A stretch of DNA of 64,000 nucleotides from Planctomycetota bacterium (GTDB lineage: Bacteria > Planctomycetota > UBA1135 > UBA2386). Every line of letters starts with the position of its first letter. Positions within the stretch are counted from its first letter, which is position 1. Below the pieces are notes generated by a model. That model searched no databases, was not told where the DNA came from, and saw only the letters and a program-made list of their open reading frames with translations. Location of the stretch: the NCBI GenBank assembly GCA_965250175.1, contig CBDFNI010000009.1, positions 1,258,265 to 1,322,264 of the forward strand, given 5' to 3'. The translations under genes were made by a program, and so were the position numbers. This document shows positions 2,426-58,071 of this stretch, piece by piece.

Positions 2426-2577
2426 CACTGCACCCGGGATACCGGCGCATGGCTCGGAGGATGGAGCACAGATTTTCTGCGATTTATTCAGGTTGGAATT
2501 ATGGTCAGGAGCCCCGGACTTCGTTAACTGGTGGATGGCGGAGCAACCGCCCACTTCCTCTCCCATTGAGTGTTCCC

Positions 2578-3309
2578 ATGCGTAGACCTGGACTTTTCTC
2601 TCTTTCTCTCTTGGCCATGTTCCTCCAGGCAGCCTTTGCAGCTTTTGCATTGGCCCAGTCGCCGCTCAAAGTGACCGGCCTTCCCGAGGATGCCCCCCTC
2701 AAGATCTCTGCCACGGCAACGTCCTCTGAGATTGTGGTGGAAGTGCAAATCCAGCCGGAGTGGCACATGTATGGTCGCGACACCGGTAGTGGCCAGCCCG
2801 TGACTCTTAAGCTGGGTGATGGCGCTCACTTCGCAGCGGTGGGGTCACTGCGGGTTCCCATGAATGCGGCAGGGGAGGTCGCCGGGTCCCAACGCCTGGT
2901 CCAAGCCATCTCTCGGGTAGCGCCAGGCAATGCGGTTCAGGCCAGTCTGCGTTTCCAGGTCTGTGATGCGATGATGTGCCTCGAGCCCATGGAGATCAGT
3001 CTCAATGGAGAAGTGGCAGCGCTGAAGGTCTTGTTGGTTGTGGATGAGAAGGGAGAGCGCAGCCAACGTATCGCTGATTGGCTGGCCAAGCGTGGTTTTG
3101 CCCAGACAGTGACGACATATGCGGAGGTTTCCAGCGAGCTCTGTGATGCCAGTGACGTAGTGATCGCGGACTCCAGGCTCTTCCGTAAAGGCAAAAGAGT
3201 GGATCCAGAATCCTTCCCGCGAACAAAGACTCCGGTGGTAGCCGTGGGGCTCAACGGCACACGACTAATCGAGGCGCATGGTCTGGCCATGACCAGTGGC
3301 TACATATGA
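2578..3309 (+). CDS. secreted protein with DsbD/DsbC N-terminal-like domain plus C-terminal alpha/beta domain
   Basis: Signal peptide MRRPGLFSLSLLAMFLQAAFAAFALAQS; QPEWHMYGRDTGSGQPVTLKL resembles the DsbD-alpha (PF11412) WHxYW strand; Cys pair QVCDAMMC. Confidence 0.45.
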   Translation: MRRPGLFSLSLLAMFLQAAFAAFALAQSPLKVTGLPEDAPLKISATATSSEIVVEVQIQPEWHMYGRDTGSGQPVTLKLGDGAHFAAVGSLRVPMNAAGEVAGSQRLVQAISRVAPGNAVQASLRFQVCDAMMCLEPMEISLNGEVAALKVLLVVDEKGERSQRIADWLAKRGFAQTVTTYAEVSSELCDASDVVIADSRLFRKGKRVDPESFPRTKTPVVAVGLNGTRLIEAHGLAMTSGYI

Positions 3310-3315
3310 ATTTGT

Positions 3316-4269
3316 ATGAACCACCAGGGCCACGGGTTGGCCCTCAAACACAGCATCTTCAATCATCCCAATGCCGTCGTTTTTCCTTCCACCAAGACAC
3401 CGCGGGAAAAGCAATATGAGGACCTTACTTCGCCCCTCTATCCCGAGGGCATGGGAGAGACCTATGAAGTCGTAGATTTCGAGGTTTCAAAACCGGACGG
3501 TTGGAACCCGACCATTGTCAGCCATGAAGGTTTCTTCACCGATGTCCCAGGCTTTGAGAACCTGGCTGAGGGATGTTCGGGCAAGATGATTGGCAGCCTC
3601 TCGTTGGCTCGGCAGGGTCGTTACTTCTACTGGGGTTATTCCATTGATCCACAACGATTGACGGATCCAGCCCAGGGCACATTGGAGAATGTGATCCACT
3701 ACATGTCCAGCAAGCGGCATAGCCTCACCGTTCCCTTTGCGTGCACGACTCGCAGGTCCCTGTGGATCTATTTGGAGCTGAATCGGCGAGTGGGATACCT
3801 GCGTGGTATTGAGGAGCACTTCTTGGGCACGGTCCAGGAAGAGTCGCGGCAAGGATATGTGGCAACGCCCGAGGGTTTGAAGGCCTGGCTCGACGAAAAC
3901 CTCGCCTATGTGTTTAGCGGCAAAACACCCTCCCACAAGGGAACCAGGTACACGACGGTTTTTGAAGTCGACACCGATGCGAAGGTTCTCAAGACTCCCA
4001 ACGGGGAGCGGGCCAGCTTGGAGACCTGGATTCAACTTGCCGGGGGCGAGGACAAGGAAAAGTCCGCAACAGCCGAAGATCTGCTGGAGCGTTATGTCCA
4101 TCCCGACATTGCGCCAGCATCTGTGGATGGTCGCTGTGACTGGGCCGCCTGGTATGAGCGTAGCCGTGATCGCATTGTGTTCGTGGACTCGGCAGGCTTT
4201 TGGTGGATTGAGGACCCGCGAGTGCTCGAGCGGGAGCAGCGCCAGGCCCGCGCACTGTCTGGTCAGTAG
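3316..4269 (+). CDS. hypothetical protein
   Basis: 317-aa ORF with coding-like composition and no recognisable motifs. Confidence 0.45.
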   Translation: MNHQGHGLALKHSIFNHPNAVVFPSTKTPREKQYEDLTSPLYPEGMGETYEVVDFEVSKPDGWNPTIVSHEGFFTDVPGFENLAEGCSGKMIGSLSLARQGRYFYWGYSIDPQRLTDPAQGTLENVIHYMSSKRHSLTVPFACTTRRSLWIYLELNRRVGYLRGIEEHFLGTVQEESRQGYVATPEGLKAWLDENLAYVFSGKTPSHKGTRYTTVFEVDTDAKVLKTPNGERASLETWIQLAGGEDKEKSATAEDLLERYVHPDIAPASVDGRCDWAAWYERSRDRIVFVDSAGFWWIEDPRVLEREQRQARALSGQ

Positions 4270-5431: not shown

Positions 5432-6368
5432 ACCTGTTGTTTCTCAGGCTGCCGTTTCCCAGCCAAAGGTTGCTGTTCTGCTACTGAATTGGCGCCAGGC
5501 ATGGCTGACCCTGCAGTGTCTGGAGGATCTGCGGGCATGCGGCCAGAGCAACATGTTGGTGCTCTGCATGGACAATGGTTCAGGCGCCAAGGATGAAGAG
5601 TTGCTGTGGCAAGAGGTGCATGGCGAGGGCGTGCAACTGCAATTGCTGCACGCCAACCTGGGCTACTGTGCTGCCATGAACCGGGGCATCGAATGGGCCG
5701 TGGACCAAGGCGCGCGCCACGTCCTGTTCCTCAACAACGATGTGCGCCTGCCCAAGGGTTTCTTGCAGCCCATGGTGCAGGCCCTGGAGAATGATACCTC
5801 CCTGGCTGGGGTGGGGCCCACCATCCTGCGGCCGGATGGCATGGTCTGGGCAGCGGGTGCCCAGATGGGGTTTTGCGCCAACCTGACTCGCTTGAGCCAA
5901 CAAGGTCAGCCGCCGGCGCCGCAGGATCAGGGTCCGTCGTTCACCCATTTTCTGCCTGGCGCCTGTGCCCTATATCGCTTGAGTGACCTACAGGCCAATG
6001 GTGGTCTGGACGAAGGCTACTTCATGTACATGGAGGATGCGGATCTGGGCAGGCGCCTATGGCAGCAACAGCGGAAGATCCTCTGGCTGCCCTGGGTGCG
6101 AGTCACCCATGCACCGGGCTCATCTTCCGGCGGTGGCCAGTCACCACTGCGTAAATACCTCATGGCCAACAACAGCCTGCGCTACCTTCGTCGTCACGGC
6201 AGCCTGAAGCTGTGGGCGGCCTTCTGGCTCATTGACTGCCTGGGTCTGCCCCTGGTCTTCTTGCGCAGTGGCTGGCAGCTGGGTATGGCCAAGGCCAAGG
6301 GCTTGCTGCATGGTTTCCAAGGCCGCCGGCCTGGGCTTGCGGCGGTGACAAAGTGGGTACGATTATGA
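5391..6368 (+). CDS. glycosyltransferase family 2
   Basis: VAVLLLNWRQ...CMDNGSGAKDE...FLNNDVRLPKGF are GT2 motifs; the start is uncertain and overlaps the upstream GT2 3' end. Confidence 0.7.
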   Translation: MLATGVSWGGSVTEPVVSQAAVSQPKVAVLLLNWRQAWLTLQCLEDLRACGQSNMLVLCMDNGSGAKDEELLWQEVHGEGVQLQLLHANLGYCAAMNRGIEWAVDQGARHVLFLNNDVRLPKGFLQPMVQALENDTSLAGVGPTILRPDGMVWAAGAQMGFCANLTRLSQQGQPPAPQDQGPSFTHFLPGACALYRLSDLQANGGLDEGYFMYMEDADLGRRLWQQQRKILWLPWVRVTHAPGSSSGGGQSPLRKYLMANNSLRYLRRHGSLKLWAAFWLIDCLGLPLVFLRSGWQLGMAKAKGLLHGFQGRRPGLAAVTKWVRL

Positions 6369-8910: not shown

Positions 8911-10305
8911 CTAGCAGGCCGTTGAAGAAGGGGTGATTTGGAGATTGTCGATCCCGAGACATCCGTTTTCTGCCCCGGGATTCTTATGGCGGAAAATAAT
9001 GGCAGTCATTGCGATCCAGCAAGCTGGTTGGGGCCAAACAGATCCACAAAGCTCATATACGCGGCTGAGGAAGCCCTCAAAGCCCCTCTGCAATCCCCTT
9101 GGCGTCCCAACTCCAAACAGGCTACGCATGATCGTGCCAAGATTGCGTGCAGCGACATGGACCACGTACCGCTTTTTGACATTCTCGATGCCGCGCAACC
9201 AAGTCCGGCGTGCACCGCCTGACCCACAGGTGTGCGCAAAGCTTCTCTCCACTCGTTCACTTCGTAAGCGCTGGAGCTTTTTGGATCGCGATCCTGCAAC
9301 ACGCCGACGGTTTGCTCGATAAGCATCCTGCCACGATTCTGGTTTGTCCGTCCACTTGCGGCGGTTCTGTGACCGCGGCTGTGGTATGTAAGAAAGTATC
9401 TCTCTCTCGCTTAGCCATGCCAGGGTTTCAACTTTGTGGTAGCCCTTGTCGGCGACAACTGCCTTGTATTGGTCATCTTGCTCAGCACTGATCAGCACCG
9501 CCTGAGCCTCAATGATTCCGTCTTTCAGTGCCTCGCTGTCAGCAGTATCTGCATGGTGGATCGTCGCGGAGACGATGATCTCGGAGTCAGTGTCCAGCGC
9601 GTGCTGTGCCTTGTAGGCAAGGTGGGTACGCCCATCCTTCATCTTCGCGATCCTGCTGTCGGGGTCTGAGGGCGACTCCCAGTCCTTGTTCGAGGTCTTC
9701 TTCCCACGGCGTTTGCGATCGAATCGCCGTAAGTCCTCCTCCGTTGGGACTTCGGCCCCTTCTTCTTTCGCAAGCTCGCGCACGTAGTCATTCCAGCCCT
9801 TGCCAGTATCCTTGCGCACAATGGACTTCATTGCAGCATTGGCTTCCAACGTCGTTGTGTCCACGGCCAGTGCCTTGCCCTTCACCATGCCCTTGGATTT
9901 GGCGATCTTGACCACGAATGCAAACACCTCTTCGTGCACTTCTACTGGCAGCCGTTTGCGGATCACGGTCAAGCTGGAGTGATCAGGGGTCATCTCTGTC
10001 AGCAAAAGCCCAAGGAATTGCTGGAGCGAGCGGCTGTCACTGCAGCGCCATGCAATCCCACGCTGTGAATCCACACCTTCGAAATAGCCGACCAGCAGCA
10101 TCCGGAAGTAGACGCCTGGCGGAATTGAAGGGCGGCCGCCTTCCTTGTAGTAGGGCTCGCAAAGCGATTCGACATAGTGATCGAACTTCGCTTCGCTGAG
10201 AAGCTCATTCAGCTTCGCGTAAAACGGGTGCCCTGGAGATCGGGGAAGATTGGTCGTCGAGACCAAAAGTGCTTGCTGCTTGTCGCGTCGTTTGCCAAGT
10301 GCCAT
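8911..10305 (-). CDS. IS5-family transposase (DUF772 N-terminus + DDE_Tnp_1)
   Basis: N-terminus ...YYKEGGRPSIPPGVYFRMLLVGYFEGVDSQRGIAWRCSDSRSLQQFLGL is the hallmark of DUF772/IS5-group transposases. Confidence 0.8.
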   Translation of the reverse strand: MALGKRRDKQQALLVSTTNLPRSPGHPFYAKLNELLSEAKFDHYVESLCEPYYKEGGRPSIPPGVYFRMLLVGYFEGVDSQRGIAWRCSDSRSLQQFLGLLLTEMTPDHSSLTVIRKRLPVEVHEEVFAFVVKIAKSKGMVKGKALAVDTTTLEANAAMKSIVRKDTGKGWNDYVRELAKEEGAEVPTEEDLRRFDRKRRGKKTSNKDWESPSDPDSRIAKMKDGRTHLAYKAQHALDTDSEIIVSATIHHADTADSEALKDGIIEAQAVLISAEQDDQYKAVVADKGYHKVETLAWLSEREILSYIPQPRSQNRRKWTDKPESWQDAYRANRRRVAGSRSKKLQRLRSERVERSFAHTCGSGGARRTWLRGIENVKKRYVVHVAARNLGTIMRSLFGVGTPRGLQRGFEGFLSRVYELCGSVWPQPACWIAMTAIIFRHKNPGAENGCLGIDNLQITPSSTAC

Positions 10306-11002: not shown

Positions 11003-11643
11003 CAGGCTCCCTCCCGCATGGTCAAGTCAGCCGCTTCTGGCTTCTTGTTCCAGCTGGGCCAATTGATCGGGCCAACCTGGTCCAGTGACTCCGACTGCTC
11101 CTTGGTAAGTCCCAGGTTCAGCGCCAACTGAAATGGGTCGGAGGCTTGCAGTGATGTGCTGAAGGTCTTGTAGAACAAGCTGGTGAAGGCCTCCTTCACC
11201 GCCTGCGAAGTGGAGAAGAGCATGATGGATGACTGCTCCGGCAGGTAGACCAGGTCCACAAGATTGATGGAAGGCAGTACTCGAGGCAGGAGTTTCTGCA
11301 TCAAGTCTTCCTTCAGATCCTTCTTTTCGCTGCTGGTTAGTTTGCGACCTTCTGCTCGCTCCGCCGCGGTGCGGTGGATGGCCATCCACTTGGTGGGGAT
11401 GGCTTTCTTGTCGATGCGAAAGCGCATCCAGACCTTGCCATCAAAGTCCATATCCTCCAGCTCGAAGCTGTTGCCGCTGGGATCAGCCTGCGTTACCCAG
11501 CCCACTGAAGTTTCTTCAGAAGCGGCATTCTCGATACTGCGGAACCTGTGTTTGGCCAGGTTTTGCGCAAAGCTGTCGCTTTGCAGATCAGGCATTGCGC
11601 CCTCGATTGCGTAGAAGATGACGCTGCCACTGCGGCGGAACAT
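11002..11643 (-). CDS. rdgC: RdgC N-terminal part (gene split by a frameshift)
   Basis: Aligns to E. coli RdgC: MFRRSGSVIFYAI~MLWFKNLMVYRL, RKLTSSEKKDLKEDLMQKLLPR~[22 protein letters not shown]. Confidence 0.6.
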   Translation of the reverse strand: MFRRSGSVIFYAIEGAMPDLQSDSFAQNLAKHRFRSIENAASEETSVGWVTQADPSGNSFELEDMDFDGKVWMRFRIDKKAIPTKWMAIHRTAAERAEGRKLTSSEKKDLKEDLMQKLLPRVLPSINLVDLVYLPEQSSIMLFSTSQAVKEAFTSLFYKTFSTSLQASDPFQLALNLGLTKEQSESLDQVGPINWPSWNKKPEAADLTMREGA

Positions 11644-47933: not shown

Positions 47934-48476
47934 ATGGCCAAGGTTGATGCAAAACCTCCGCAGCCGCGAACCGAGCTGGCGGAATTCAAAGTCAATGGCG
48001 AAGGGCACCAGGTTGCCTACGCCACCCACAAGACCCTTCTAGAGGTGCTGCGGGAGGATATGAACCTCACCGGCACCAAGCACGGCTGCGAGCTGGGCGA
48101 GTGCGGGACCTGCACTATATTGCTCGACGGCAAGCCGGTGCTTTCCTGTCTGGTCCTGGCGCAGGATGCGGTGGGTCAGGACATCCGCACCGTGGAGGGA
48201 ATGGCCGATGGTCCAACCCTGCACCCGCTGCAGGATGCCTTTGCTGATCTGGGTGCGGCCCAGTGCGGCTACTGCACGCCGGGCTTCTTGTTGACTGCCC
48301 AGGCCCTGTTGGAAAAGAACCCCAAGCCCGAGCGCCAGACCCTGGTGGAAGAGTTGGCGGGCAATCTTTGCCGCTGTACCGGATACCTGAAGATCTACGA
48401 GGCCGTTGAACTGGCGGCGGCTCGCATGCGCGGAGAAAAAGCGGAGCCCAGCAAGGAGAGCATCTATGGCCACTAA
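47934..48476 (+). CDS. molybdenum hydroxylase small subunit, (2Fe-2S)-binding
   Basis: Both 2Fe-2S motifs: CELGECGTCT...C and CRCTGY / CGYCTPG. Confidence 0.85.
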   Translation: MAKVDAKPPQPRTELAEFKVNGEGHQVAYATHKTLLEVLREDMNLTGTKHGCELGECGTCTILLDGKPVLSCLVLAQDAVGQDIRTVEGMADGPTLHPLQDAFADLGAAQCGYCTPGFLLTAQALLEKNPKPERQTLVEELAGNLCRCTGYLKIYEAVELAAARMRGEKAEPSKESIYGH

Positions 48477-51021
48477 AAGTAATGGCAAGGGTGACAAGGC
48501 CAAGAGCGACAAGCCCCCGAGTGAGAAGTCAGAGTACTCGGACCGCTACCACCAGCACGACAAGAAGGCCAAGGATCTGAAAGTGGTGGGGCAGCCCTAC
48601 CGCAAGGTGGATGCTCGCAGCAAAGTCACCGGCCTGACCCAGTTCGCCGACGACATGAGCCTGCCGCGCATGCTGCACATGAAGATGCTGCGCAGCACCA
48701 TGGCTCACGCTCTGATCAAGAGCATCGATGCCAGTGCGGCGGTCGCCATGCCCGGTGTGCATGCGGTGTTGCTGGGCAAGGAACTGCCAGAACCCTTTGG
48801 TATTTTGCCGGTGAGCCAGGATGAACACACCATGTGCATCGACAAGGTGCGCTTTGTTGGTGATCCGGTGGCGGCCGTCGCAGCCGTGGATGAGGACACG
48901 GCCTGGGAAGCCTGCCGCCTCATCAAGGTGGAGTATGAGCCCCTGGAGATCCTGGGCTCCATCTTCCAGGCTGCCGAGACCAAGACGCCGCAGATTCACG
49001 AATACGCCGACGCCGGCAATGCGCACAAGCTCATCAACCTGGAGTTTGGCAACCTGCAAGAGGGCTTCGACAGCGCCGATCATGTGCGGGAAGACACCTT
49101 CTTCTTCGAAGGCAACACCCACCTGCCCATGGAGCAGCACGCCAGCCTGGCCCAGTATGACACCGACGACAAGCTGTGCATCTGGAGCAGCACGCAGACC
49201 CCGCATTACCTGCACCGGGCTCTGTCCAAAGTCCTGGCGCCCTTGCCAGCCACTAACATTCGCGTCATTGCCTGTCCCAATGGTGGTGGCTTTGGCGGCA
49301 AGTCGGATCCCTTCAATCACGAGATAGCCGCGGCGGCCTTGAGTCGCAAGACTGGTCGGCCGGTGAAGGTGGCGCTGACTCGGGAAGAAGTGTTCTACTG
49401 TCACCGTGGTCGGCATCCGGTTTTGATGAAGACCAAGATGGGCATGAGCAAGGACGGCGAGATCCAGGCTCTGGACTTTGAGAGTTACCTGGATGGTGGC
49501 GCCTATGGTTCATATGGCGTGGCCAGCACCTTCTACACCGGTGCTCTGCAGACCGTGACCTACAAGGTGAAGAACTACCACTTCCGTGGTGCCCGTTACT
49601 TCACCAACAAGGCGCCCTGTGGTCCCAAGCGGGGTCACGGCACGGTGCAGCCGCGCTTTGCTCTGGAAGTGCAGATGGACAAGATGGCCTGTGACCTGGG
49701 CATGGATCCCGCCGAGATCCGGCGCAAGCATCTGGCGCCCAAGGAATCTCTCACCGCCAACTTCATGCGCATCGGCTCCATGGGCCTGGGTGCCTGCATT
49801 GACAAGGTGGTGGAGGGCTGCGGCTGGAAAGAGCGCCGGGCAAAGATGCCACATGGCAAGGGTCTGGGCATGGCCTGCAGTTCTTATCTCTCCGGTGCCG
49901 GCCTGCCCATCTATTGGAACGGCATGCCGCACTCCGGTGTGCAACTCAAGCTGGATCGCAGTGGCCTGGTCACTGTGTTCTGCGGCAGCACCGACATTGG
50001 TCAGGGCAGTGATTCGGTCCTGGCCTACGTGGTTGCCGAAGTCCTGGGTCTGGATCCCATGAAGATGCGGGTGATCACCGCCGACACCGACCTGACGCCG
50101 GTGGACCTGGGCAGTTATTCCAGCCGGGTGACGGTGATGACTGGCAACGCTGCCATGCAGGCAGCGGAGCGGGCCAAGGAAATCGTCGCCGCTGGCGCCG
50201 CCAAGAAATTGGAAGTGCCCAAGGGTCGGTTGGTCTTTGCTGACGAGCGGGTGTTCGACGCCGAGGATCCGGAGCGGGGCATGAGCTTTGCCGAAGCGGT
50301 GGTGGCCGCCGAGTCGGTTTTTGGCACCATCGGCACCGTCGGCTCCTATCGTCCGCCGAAGAGTGCAGCGCGCTTCAAGGGTGGTGGCGTTGGCCCCAGC
50401 CCTTCTTATTCCTACAGCTGTGCGGTGGTGGAAGTTGACGTGGATCCGGAGACCGGCATCTACAAGGTGCCGAAGATCTGGGTGGCCCACGACATTGGTC
50501 GCTCCCTCAACCCCACCATTGCCATGGGGCAGATTGAAGGCGGTGTCTACATGGGCCTGGGTGAAGCCATGATGGAGGAGATGGCCTACCGGGATCGTTC
50601 GCATAAGGGCCAGCGGCTGTTCCTGCACAAGATTCCTTCCATGTTGGAATACAAGAGTCCCACCACCTTCGAGATGCCGGACATCGTCACCTATGTGGTG
50701 GAAGATCCGGATCCCAACGGTCCCTATGGCGCCAAGGAAGTGGGCCAGGGTCCCTTGCTGCCCATCATGCCGGCAGTGGCCAACGCGGTGTTTGACGCCG
50801 TCGGGGTGCGGGTGGATGAGATCCCGGTGACGCAGGAGAAGATCTTTGCCGGCATGCAACTGAAAGCCAAAGGCAAGGATCCGCGAGTGGGTCCCGACAA
50901 GACCCCGGATGAAAATTGGCCCGAACCCCGTCGGGTGCGCACACCCTGGCAGGGTGGCACTGGTGTGGAAGTGGAGCGCGAAGCCATACAAACGCAAAAG
51001 GCGGGAGGCAAGTCATGCTAA
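48466..51021 (+). CDS. molybdenum hydroxylase large (molybdopterin-binding) subunit, xanthine dehydrogenase/CoxL family
   Basis: ~850 aa with Ald_Xan_dh_C-type architecture; ATG 48466 preceded by GGAG, overlaps the small-subunit stop by 11 nt. Confidence 0.85.
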   Translation: MATKSNGKGDKAKSDKPPSEKSEYSDRYHQHDKKAKDLKVVGQPYRKVDARSKVTGLTQFADDMSLPRMLHMKMLRSTMAHALIKSIDASAAVAMPGVHAVLLGKELPEPFGILPVSQDEHTMCIDKVRFVGDPVAAVAAVDEDTAWEACRLIKVEYEPLEILGSIFQAAETKTPQIHEYADAGNAHKLINLEFGNLQEGFDSADHVREDTFFFEGNTHLPMEQHASLAQYDTDDKLCIWSSTQTPHYLHRALSKVLAPLPATNIRVIACPNGGGFGGKSDPFNHEIAAAALSRKTGRPVKVALTREEVFYCHRGRHPVLMKTKMGMSKDGEIQALDFESYLDGGAYGSYGVASTFYTGALQTVTYKVKNYHFRGARYFTNKAPCGPKRGHGTVQPRFALEVQMDKMACDLGMDPAEIRRKHLAPKESLTANFMRIGSMGLGACIDKVVEGCGWKERRAKMPHGKGLGMACSSYLSGAGLPIYWNGMPHSGVQLKLDRSGLVTVFCGSTDIGQGSDSVLAYVVAEVLGLDPMKMRVITADTDLTPVDLGSYSSRVTVMTGNAAMQAAERAKEIVAAGAAKKLEVPKGRLVFADERVFDAEDPERGMSFAEAVVAAESVFGTIGTVGSYRPPKSAARFKGGGVGPSPSYSYSCAVVEVDVDPETGIYKVPKIWVAHDIGRSLNPTIAMGQIEGGVYMGLGEAMMEEMAYRDRSHKGQRLFLHKIPSMLEYKSPTTFEMPDIVTYVVEDPDPNGPYGAKEVGQGPLLPIMPAVANAVFDAVGVRVDEIPVTQEKIFAGMQLKAKGKDPRVGPDKTPDENWPEPRRVRTPWQGGTGVEVEREAIQTQKAGGKSC

Positions 51022-51995
51022 GGCTACCAACCTTCAACTATCACCGTCCCAAGACTGCTGCTGAAGCGGTAAAGATTGTCGCTGAACACGGTCCGGCTTC
51101 CCGCTTTGTCGCCGGCGGCACCGACCTCTATCCCAACATGAAGCGTCGGCATCAAACGCCGACGGAAGTGGTGGGCTTAGGACGCATTGCTGAACTGCAA
51201 GGCCTGTCCGGCGATGGCAAGTCCGGCCTGACCCTGGGGGCGATGACCAGCCTCACCGATCTGGAACACAACCAACAGCTGTTGGAGCAGTATCCATCGG
51301 TGGCGAACTGCGTGAGTCTGATCTCCACACCCTTGTTGCGCAACATGGGCACCATCGGCGGCAACCTGCTGTTGGACACCCGCTGCACCTACTATGACCA
51401 GACCTTCGAATGGCGGGAGTCCATCGATTTTTGCATGAAGGAAAAGGGGGCGATCTGCTGGGTGGCCCCGGGTAGTCCGCGTTGCTGGGCAGTGCAGAGT
51501 TCGGACTCGGTGCCCCTGTTGTGCGCCATGGATGCGGAAGTGACCCTGGTATCCGCCGAGGGTGAACGCCGCATCAAGCTGGATGCGCTCTACAACGACG
51601 ACGGCATCCAATATCTCACCAAGAAGCCCGGTGAGCTGCTGACCCAGGTGCACCTGCCGGCCTTGAATGGTTGGCGGGCCTCGTACCGGAAGCTGCGCCG
51701 GCGGGATACCTTCGACTTCCCGGTATTGGGAGTGGGAGCTTGTGTGCATCTGGATGGGGATGTGATCCAGGAGGTGAAGATTCGCATTGGCGGTGCTGGT
51801 TCCTACGCCATCCACGCCACCGCCGCTGAGGACATGTTGCGGGGTCAGAAGGCGACGGAAGAATTGATTCAGGCGGCGGCGCAAGCAGCTTTCAAGCCAG
51901 CGCGCCCCATGGACAACACGGACCACGAAGTGGCCTGGCGCAAGAAGATGGCGCCGATCTTCACCGCCCGGGCATTGCGAGATTGTCTGGGGTAA
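51015..51995 (+). CDS. molybdenum hydroxylase medium (FAD-binding) subunit, CoxM-like
   Basis: MLRLPTFNYHRPKTAAEAV...FVAGGTDLYPNMK is a CO-dehydrogenase flavoprotein-type N-terminus; overlaps the large-subunit stop (ATGCTAA). Confidence 0.8.
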   Translation: MLRLPTFNYHRPKTAAEAVKIVAEHGPASRFVAGGTDLYPNMKRRHQTPTEVVGLGRIAELQGLSGDGKSGLTLGAMTSLTDLEHNQQLLEQYPSVANCVSLISTPLLRNMGTIGGNLLLDTRCTYYDQTFEWRESIDFCMKEKGAICWVAPGSPRCWAVQSSDSVPLLCAMDAEVTLVSAEGERRIKLDALYNDDGIQYLTKKPGELLTQVHLPALNGWRASYRKLRRRDTFDFPVLGVGACVHLDGDVIQEVKIRIGGAGSYAIHATAAEDMLRGQKATEELIQAAAQAAFKPARPMDNTDHEVAWRKKMAPIFTARALRDCLG

Positions 51996-56958: not shown

Positions 56959-58071
56959 ATGTTCAAACCTTCCGCCTTCACTGTCACCTTCCTAGCCTGC
57001 GCCTTGCTGTCGTCAGGGCTTTGGGCACAGACCACCCGGCCCACCTCCCGCCCTACTTCCCGTCCTGCCAATCAGCAGGCGAACCAGCAGGGCAATAAGC
57101 AGGTCAAGAAGCAGGCCAAGAAGATGGACCGGCGTGCCATGCGGGCCGCCCGATCCTTCAAGCGCTTGCAAGTCCCTGGCGAACAGGTTGCCAGCAATGT
57201 GGCCAGGCTGAAGCGGGAGTTGAGGTGGCACAAGAACCTGGGTTCAGCCTTGGAAGCAGGACGGGACAGCAAGAAGCCGGTGTTGTGGATCCAGGCCCTG
57301 GGAGATCTGGATGGTTTTCTTTGAAGCGCTGGGCAGAGTTTGCGGGGCGTGTCCCTGGCCAGTGATTCGGTGCTCTCCATCCTGAAGAACGACTTTGTCG
57401 TCGGCTGGAAGAACATCAACCGGGAAGATTACGTGGGCTCTTCCCACGGCTACAAATGCGACGAAGCGGCGGTAGGCACCACCAATGGTGCCGGGCCCCG
57501 CAACATCCAGATGTTTGTGCTGTCCCGCGGCAGCAGGGTGGTGCATTGCCTGCCTGGCTTCTGGCATCCGGAAGATCTGGCAGTGGAGCTGCAGCATGCC
57601 AAGGTGTTGCACCGGTTGTGGGTTGATGATCGGCCCAATACGGACAAAAGCGCCATGTTTGCGCGCATCCAAATGACCGCATTGCGCACCCACTCCAAAG
57701 CCATGACTGCCCGCAGTTCCTGGCAGGGCTTCGATGCCAAGAACGAGAAGATGCGCCTGGAATCCGGCCCCCGGGACACCTTCTACTATGACGATCAGGG
57801 CCAAGCGAAGGCGCTCAAGCCCATCAATGTGTTGGTGCATGAGCGCATGGCCAAGCGCCCCTTCCTGAGCTTCCGGAAGTTCGATACGGAGCAATTCATC
57901 GACTACGGCCGCCCCTACTACGACAACAACAAGAAGTTGGGCGTCGGCGTTCAGTTCGGCACCGAGGGCTACATGGAAAGCCAGAAGCGCATGGAGCAGC
58001 GACGCAAGGCCAGGGAGAAGGCCAAGGGGAAAGCGGAGCCCGAATCCCAGCCCAAACCCCAGCCGAACTAG
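56959..58071 (+). CDS. secreted thioredoxin-fold (Thioredoxin_7-like) protein interrupted by one in-frame TGA at 57322-57324 (candidate selenoprotein or pseudogene)
   Basis: ORFs 56959..57324 and 57340..58071 are in the same frame, separated only by TGA; signal peptide, then LRWHKNLGSALEAGRDSKKPVLW...[TGA]...SDSVLSILKNDFVVGWKNIN...VVHCLPGFWHPEDLAVELQHA is collinear with the Thioredoxin_7 family (IKW..LEEALK.AK.ENKPVFVDF..WC..C...F.....VHKV.G......FLEE), and the TGA falls where the CxxC motif sits. Confidence 0.45.
57334..57362 (+). promoter_or_regulatory. GC-rich hairpin 10 nt downstream of the in-frame TGA (possible bacterial SECIS)
   Basis: CAGAGUUUGCGGGGCGUGUCCCUGGCCAG can pair into an interrupted stem with a CGUGU apical loop (GU in the loop as in a bacterial SECIS); not verified by folding. 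Confidence 0.2.

Follow-up and report, generated by a model that had tools for sequence, protein, structure and literature searches.

A single gene for an exported thioredoxin-fold selenoprotein of 370 residues very probably lies at 56959–58071 (plus strand) of the 64,000-nucleotide stretch of Planctomycetota DNA analysed here (the window), with the UGA at 57322–57324 encoding selenocysteine (Sec). In one frame the region translates as 121 codons, TGA, 248 codons and then TAG (58069–58071), which makes the UGA codon 122 of 370; orthologues read through in the same frame. Two ORFs had been called, 56959–57324 (121 aa) and 57340–58071, and the sequence-only reading had claimed that they share one frame with nothing but the TGA between them, as one-frame translation of the region confirms. 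Public databases store the gene as two proteins, P0121 (121 aa) and P0001 (240/243 aa), both matching at 100% identity and both from one contig of 1,667,487 bp; in all of the public copies that we saw, the two parts are annotated as hypothetical proteins unrelated to each other. Sec insertion, the presence of selA, selB, selC and selD in the genome, the cellular location of the product and its chemistry are what we infer from the comparisons below.

The encoded protein is differentiated into several regions. A signal peptide (56959–57027; residues 1–23, MFKPSAFTVTFLACALLSSGLWA) was read directly from the sequence, with cleavage predicted before Q24; its pattern of n-region, hydrophobic core and AxA↓Q is conserved in about 60 orthologues (judged by eye). 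There follow a low-complexity linker rich in Pro, Thr, Arg, Gln and Lys that runs into the start of a long helix (57028–57180, little conserved), a thioredoxin-like domain (57181–57624; approximately residues 75–222), a conserved C-terminal domain of unassigned function (57625–57993; approximately residues 223–345) and a Lys/Glu/Pro-rich tail whose length varies among orthologues (57994–58068). The thioredoxin-like domain begins with strand β-1 (KPVLWIQAL) and continues through FVVGW, GTTNGAG and VVHCLPGFWHP; the C-terminal domain holds invariant RS-WQ-FD, RD, HER and DYG-YDNN motifs. Sec122 is placed in the loop after β-1, and the TGA splits the thioredoxin-like domain. The surrounding peptide is ...KKPVLWIQALGDLDGFL-(TGA)-SAGQSLRGVSLASDSVLSILKNDFVVGWKNI..., with the motif LGDLDGFL-TGA-SAGQSLRGVSL and no Cys at −3 or +3. 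Signal peptide, low-complexity linker and a single-Sec site without a partner Cys at −3/+3 had all been proposed from the bare sequence, and all three stand; the family has no conserved partner Cys at the site.

Querying with the read-through protein returned 309 homologues from the database, nearly all of 210–290 aa and covering only the part after the TGA. At the DNA level two homologues (73% and 60% identical) each revealed an in-frame upstream ORF with a signal peptide, a KPxLWIxALGDxxGFL block and a TGA in the equivalent place. Scanning species-representative genomes extended this to 69 loci, almost all from Planctomycetota MAGs, plus three from Candidatus Obscuribacter. Taking the window and those loci together (about 60 species-representative genomes, 40–74% identity), the homologous codon is TGA in 68 of the 69 distinct genes, a recurrence that excludes chance, and TGC in one paralogue. 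Its flanks are conserved, with signal peptides and KPxLWxQALGDxDG upstream and SAxQSLRGV and the remainder of the protein downstream. Alignment of orthologues, which had been suggested as a check, gave TGA at the same codon in orthologues and Cys (TGC) in paralogues; an in-frame UGA with coding conservation on both sides is one of the marks of a bacterial selenoprotein gene.

Database records of the family are fractured at the same point. As a search query the N-terminal fragment found only 4 matches, and a profile built across the TGA site recovered 115 further proteins, all of them short N-terminal fragments (55–177 aa), as expected if gene calling halts at the TGA. Database-wide, some 300 C-terminal and 115 N-terminal fragments begin or end at the TGA codon. 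An exhaustive HMMER search of 1.84 billion representatives identified 341 family members; where the match extends to the first positions of the profile, about 50 proteins start at the break and 9 are full length. Several genomes carry at least two TGA copies at distant sites (L003 and L016, L005 and L031, L006 and L035, L009 and L012, L008 and L065), which implies that the family expanded as a selenoprotein. The three Candidatus Obscuribacter (Melainabacteria) loci, L062, L063 and L064, have the Sec form GFT-U-SAGNSLRAV with a register-shifted, compensated version of the hairpin described below, and their sequences suggest horizontal transfer out of Planctomycetota.

Cysteine replaces Sec exactly at the TGA position in the full-length proteins P0113, P0243, P0244 and P0248 (...LGELDGLA-C-STLQSLRG...) and in the gene at L057:11236; Cys homologues that align to the UGA are a second mark of a selenoprotein gene. 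Two unrelated contigs each hold a tandem pair of Sec and Cys paralogues: L057 has a TGA copy at 9995 and the TGC copy at 11236, and L072 has a Sec copy at 1473–2507 (TGA 1764) and the Cys copy P0113 at 2574–3833. The tandem Cys paralogues keep the QSLRG peptide, spell its Arg as CGC and lack the SECIS hairpin. Across the family, Sec forms far outnumber Cys forms. The site can also lose both residues: P0267 (L074:5193, 446 aa), a divergent paralogue in which a domain is duplicated internally, encodes Trp there by a true TGG and has no hairpin, and the distant relatives P0284, P0296, P0288 and P0322 have Ser, Ala or Pro. These Trp, Ser, Ala and Pro relatives are presumably non-redox derivatives, and they show that the scaffold can exist without a redox residue. 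A further apparent Trp form, P0269 (L073:268), was rejected: its DNA reads TGA, the 'W' being an artefact of code-4 translation of a 38%-GC contig on which a second TGA, at codon 2, is likewise printed W. With this gene the family reaches a low-GC, non-planctomycete-like lineage, where the hairpin persists in compensated form.

We aligned the 60 nt from the TGA across 68 Sec genes. A SECIS-like hairpin (57342–57358, plus strand) is defined there by pairing, covariation, codon bias and absence from Cys paralogues; its arms are columns 21–26 and 32–37 (57342–57347 and 57353–57358 in the window), with the first base 17 nt past the TGA. The window stem has five canonical pairs (57343–57347 with 57353–57357), the outermost position, 57342/57358, being G-G here and paired in 66 of the 68. 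The five-nucleotide loop (57348–57352) is CGUGU in the window and C-G-U-G-N in the alignment, with G57349 and U57350 (columns 28 and 29) invariant and a UGA-to-loop spacing of 23 nt. At pair 22–36, 46 sequences have C-G and 19 have A-U, and neither base changes without the other; pair 21–37 is G-C in 55, G-U in 6 and C-G in 5. Paired cells amount to 95.8% overall, whereas no slid register exceeds 73.5%, and the observed covariation was reached by 0 of 500 shuffles (a figure uncorrected for the relatedness of the sequences). The outliers, L002, L062–64, L068 and the low-GC L073, form a hairpin of 5–7 bp at the same place through different compensations. A covarying structure that is lost in non-Sec homologues is a third mark of a selenoprotein gene.

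The published bSECIS model has a loop of 3–9 nt, a stem of 4–16 bp and a minimum free energy of −7.5 kcal/mol or lower (PMC13188914, Fig. 2A), with a G among the first two nucleotides of the loop, typically with G or U after it, and a UGA-to-loop distance of 16–37 nt (PMC13188914). The element described here agrees on every count (loop 5 nt, stem 5–6 bp, spacing 23 nt), folding at −8.2 kcal/mol in the window and at −7.5 kcal/mol or lower in 65 of the 68 sequences. An RNA fold of the region had been recommended from the outset; the fold does form at this energy, but taken alone the window hairpin is no more stable than shuffled sequence (z = 0.41), and the evidence for it is comparative rather than a matter of single-sequence stability. 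The sequence-only reading had placed a GC-rich, GU-looped hairpin about 10 nt after the TGA: a GU-loop, SECIS-like hairpin is borne out, now with covariation, but the conserved structure starts at 17 nt. A longer lower stem beginning directly after the TGA can form in the window and is not conserved. An Rfam scan of the window gave no match, SECIS not being a family that Rfam detects here.

How the UGA is decoded bears on a rival reading that we consider very improbable: that near-cognate or suppressor decoding inserts Trp, Cys or Arg, the hairpin acting as a generic stimulator. The genuine TGG in the divergent L074 paralogue would fit such decoding, as would the failure to find Sec machinery in the sequence searched. 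Neither the 64-kb window nor some 1.1 Mb of flanking sequence (71 loci, related genomes) contained a detectable selA, selB, selD or tRNA-Sec, a result that at this coverage is uninformative rather than negative. Local tblastn with E. coli SelA, SelB and SelD (approximate queries) matched LepA/EF4 only. Against non-Sec read-through, the close full-length relatives carry Cys, not Trp; the hairpin fits every bacterial SECIS criterion, including the invariant loop GU and the spacing; and the Trp paralogue is divergent, duplicated and devoid of the hairpin. TGA is moreover an ordinary stop in this genome: it ends 6 of the 24 long high-GC3 ORFs in the window, and we therefore regard it as not reassigned. 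For bacterial redox proteins, no such conserved system of UGA read-through without Sec is known.

Two long tRNA calls by ARAGORN, each about 2.3 kb upstream of a family gene, are probable false positives: a 93-nt 'Cys-GCA' at L011:7597–7689, for which Rfam gave no similarity to tRNA or tRNA-Sec even at E ≤ 1, and a 96-nt 'Ser-GCT' at L030:7758–7853 (anticodon at position 40), for which Rfam likewise gave no similarity at E ≤ 1. A second recoding candidate within the window, the TGA at 6366–6368 (a 328-codon ORF followed by 104 open codons in frame), was also rejected, as this TGA is the stop in an ATGA that also holds the start of the next gene, which lies in another frame.

A screen of the flanks for conserved in-frame TGAs yielded a second, more conventional selenoprotein candidate, on the minus strand of L036 (TGA 6880) with an orthologue on the minus strand of L043 (TGA 2480), about 3 kb from a family member in both genomes. 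Its motif is ...GRPVFVYFSKTY-U-PHC-IPVEQQLL... (FSKTY-U-PHC), and the read-through product of about 443 aa has a long helical-repeat C terminus. Once U is replaced by C, Pfam Thioredoxin_7 (33.5 bits) and Thioredoxin_2 (32.1 bits) both match it beyond their gathering thresholds; a hairpin, CAGC-AGUU-GCUG, with a GU loop lies 25 nt past its UGA. The full Sec machinery has been reported in several Planctomycetes (PMC4807772), and these reports, together with the UxxC candidate, give indirect support to Sec decoding.

Codon choice beneath the hairpin bears on a further alternative, to which we assign very little probability: that the hairpin merely follows from the conserved peptide QSLRGV(S/T)LP, without a function at the RNA level. 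Amino-acid conservation in the region is indeed strong, and the single-sequence fold is, as noted, no better than shuffles. Synonymous choice, however, is constrained. Of 68 genes, 65 spell the Arg at +7 as CGG or AGG and none as CGC, whereas in the rest of the same genes CGG and AGG make up 23% of Arg codons and CGC 61% (binomial P ~1e-37, uncorrected for phylogeny). The C-G to A-U switch at pair 22–36 is a synonymous change of Arg from CGG to AGG paired with one of Leu from CTG to CTT, CGG occurring only with CTG and AGG only with CTT. The Cys paralogues encode the same QSLRG with CGC and form no hairpin, and both the non-synonymous compensations (G-C to C-G at 21–37) and the register-shifted hairpins of the outliers argue against the peptide as the sole source of the pairing.

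Equally slight, in our estimate, is the chance that the TGA is a true stop between two separate genes, the downstream one starting at TTG 57340 or GTG 57349. Gene callers do place starts there, and two genes kept side by side could in principle have a conserved stop between them, but the starts themselves are not conserved: most sequences have CTG at columns 19–21, and 10 have GTT in place of the GTG. Such an arrangement would cut the thioredoxin fold between β-1 and α-1 and would leave both the SECIS-type hairpin and its loss in Cys forms unexplained. The sequence-only reading had judged two independent genes unlikely, and it is upheld by the split fold, by the downstream piece having no signal peptide and by the Cys paralogues being single polypeptides. 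The main alternative it had named, a sequencing or assembly error or recent pseudogene in which a TGC or TGG became TGA in this sequence alone, has a negligible probability. Such events most commonly show themselves as one in-frame stop, and public annotation does split the gene into two hypothetical proteins, but 68 of 69 distinct genes share the TGA although their assemblies and technologies are independent; the sequence on either side of it is under purifying selection, and several genomes have at least two TGA copies.

For the selenoprotein, structural comparisons used a model of the Cys paralogue P0113. Its C-terminal domain is modelled with confidence (pLDDT > 90); the equivalent of the linker and the active-site loop both fall below pLDDT 50. 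The β-α-β...β-β-α core superposes on known thioredoxin-fold structures, the Foldseek matches being modest (E ~5e-3). Cys177, the single Cys of mature P0113, lies 9 residues past β-1 (163–168), the redox residue falling at the β-1 end/α-1 start in a loop that is locally of low pLDDT, and aligns with the Cys of the AGR2 CPHS motif (a weak match). There is no CxxC, UxxC or CxxU dithiol motif; the motif is U-S-A-[G/A/L]. The model supports a thioredoxin-like fold of the Thioredoxin_7/DsbH/AGR2 type with Sec or Cys at the canonical first-Cys position. The sequence-only reading had called the fold Thioredoxin_7-like, which structure comparison sustains and the Pfam model does not: with U replaced by C, the read-through protein has no thioredoxin-family match even at E ≤ 1 (Thioredoxin_7, PF13899). 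Its other claim, that the TGA sits where family members carry the redox Cys, agrees with the position after β-1 in the P0113 model. The C-terminal ~125 residues are strongly conserved and confidently modelled; they have no match in Pfam, NCBIfam or the PDB, a PDB profile search giving only low-complexity noise.

Scans of the window protein and of P0113 against Pfam and NCBIfam (release 20.0) found no family. A May 2026 catalogue lists 119 prokaryotic selenoprotein families (PMC13188914, Table 1); none matches through Pfam, TIGR or NCBIfam models, a few entries resting on CDD/PANTHER identifiers alone. None of the GOS 'hypothetical' selenoprotein families fits, and our literature search found no paper that ties a selenoprotein family of this kind to Planctomycetota. 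This is a Planctomycetota-wide family, absent from the selenoprotein catalogues checked, that probably works like the known bacterial thioredoxin-fold selenoproteins. It shares with them the in-frame UGA at the redox position after β-1, the existence of Cys homologues and, within the coding region shortly after the UGA, a SECIS hairpin whose small apical loop carries G[U] at a distance of 16–37 nt from that codon. Unlike the catalogued members, it has no Pfam or NCBIfam match, a single Sec (U-S-A-G/A/L) without a partner Cys or Sec, a conserved C-terminal domain of about 125 residues and many more Sec than Cys forms; it is also exported (by signal peptide), present in several copies per genome and nearly limited to Planctomycetota.

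The structural neighbours are AGR2/AGR3 and other Thioredoxin_7/DsbH/DUF255-type domains (PDB 3f9u, 3ira, 7tkv, 2ju5 and 3ph9), to which sequence similarity is not significant (E = 0.2). Relative to these domains, the family has a five-residue insertion (GDLDG) before Sec, Sec in place of Cys and the extra C-terminal domain; the AGR proteins, moreover, are eukaryotic, unlike the family here. With single-Sec peroxidase-type selenoproteins (GPx-like UxxT, Prx TxxU, OsmC-like UxxT) it has in common one catalytic Sec, no resolving Cys in the motif and a thioredoxin-type fold, and its conserved Trp, Gln and Asn elsewhere in the protein may loosely recall the GPx tetrad. It differs from them in having no match to PF00255, PF00578 or PF02566 and in details of motif and topology.

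SelB/SECIS-dependent insertion is the standard bacterial mechanism for Sec, and a corresponding route can be proposed for this protein. The mRNA hairpin at 57342–57358 would be bound by SelB loaded with Sec-tRNA(Sec), which would deliver Sec to the ribosome, so that UGA 57322–57324 would be read as Sec during translation. Because a signal peptide is present, the product would then be exported, presumably to the periplasm. Sec122 would take the place of the nucleophilic first Cys of CxxC, right after β-1, and since no conserved resolving Cys stands beside it, a one-selenol redox mechanism seems likely. The selenolate would attack an oxidized substrate (a disulfide, peroxide or similar) to give a selenenylsulfide or selenenic acid, an intermediate that an external thiol or partner would resolve, and the C-terminal domain would probably supply the substrate pocket. 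The single-selenol site and the C-terminal domain may point to an uncharacterized periplasmic redox activity. It is possible, though on balance doubtful, that the family comprises near-obligate-Sec exported single-selenol enzymes in which the C-terminal domain and the invariant His, Arg, Asp, Trp, Gln and Asn build a site for chemistry beyond that of known thioredoxin-fold selenoproteins (for example, a periplasmic peroxide/organic-hydroperoxide reductase or a chalcogen- or metal-handling enzyme), and that this multi-copy family goes far to explain the retention of the Sec machinery in many Planctomycetota.

Because its public copies are annotated as two unrelated hypothetical proteins, the family has been invisible to function prediction and to selenoproteome censuses alike. 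It adds to the Planctomycetota a widespread, multi-copy, Sec-dominant family that also reaches Candidatus Obscuribacter and a low-GC lineage, and provides a clean, covariation-backed example of a SECIS within a strongly conserved peptide. The tandem Sec/Cys paralogues are natural pairs for asking why Sec is preferred, and a profile model would let annotation pipelines repair hundreds of split genes.

Analysis of conserved neighbours identified no functional partner; what recurs, such as a downstream enoyl-CoA hydratase-like gene, reflects lineage synteny, and the neighbours of the gene in the window are housekeeping genes. About 5 kb upstream (48391–51995, plus strand) lie genes for a molybdenum enzyme of the xanthine-dehydrogenase/CO-dehydrogenase family, with MoCoBD_1/2 and Ald_Xan_dh_C domains followed by a FAD_binding_5/CO_deh_flav_C subunit; some enzymes of this class use a labile selenium cofactor.
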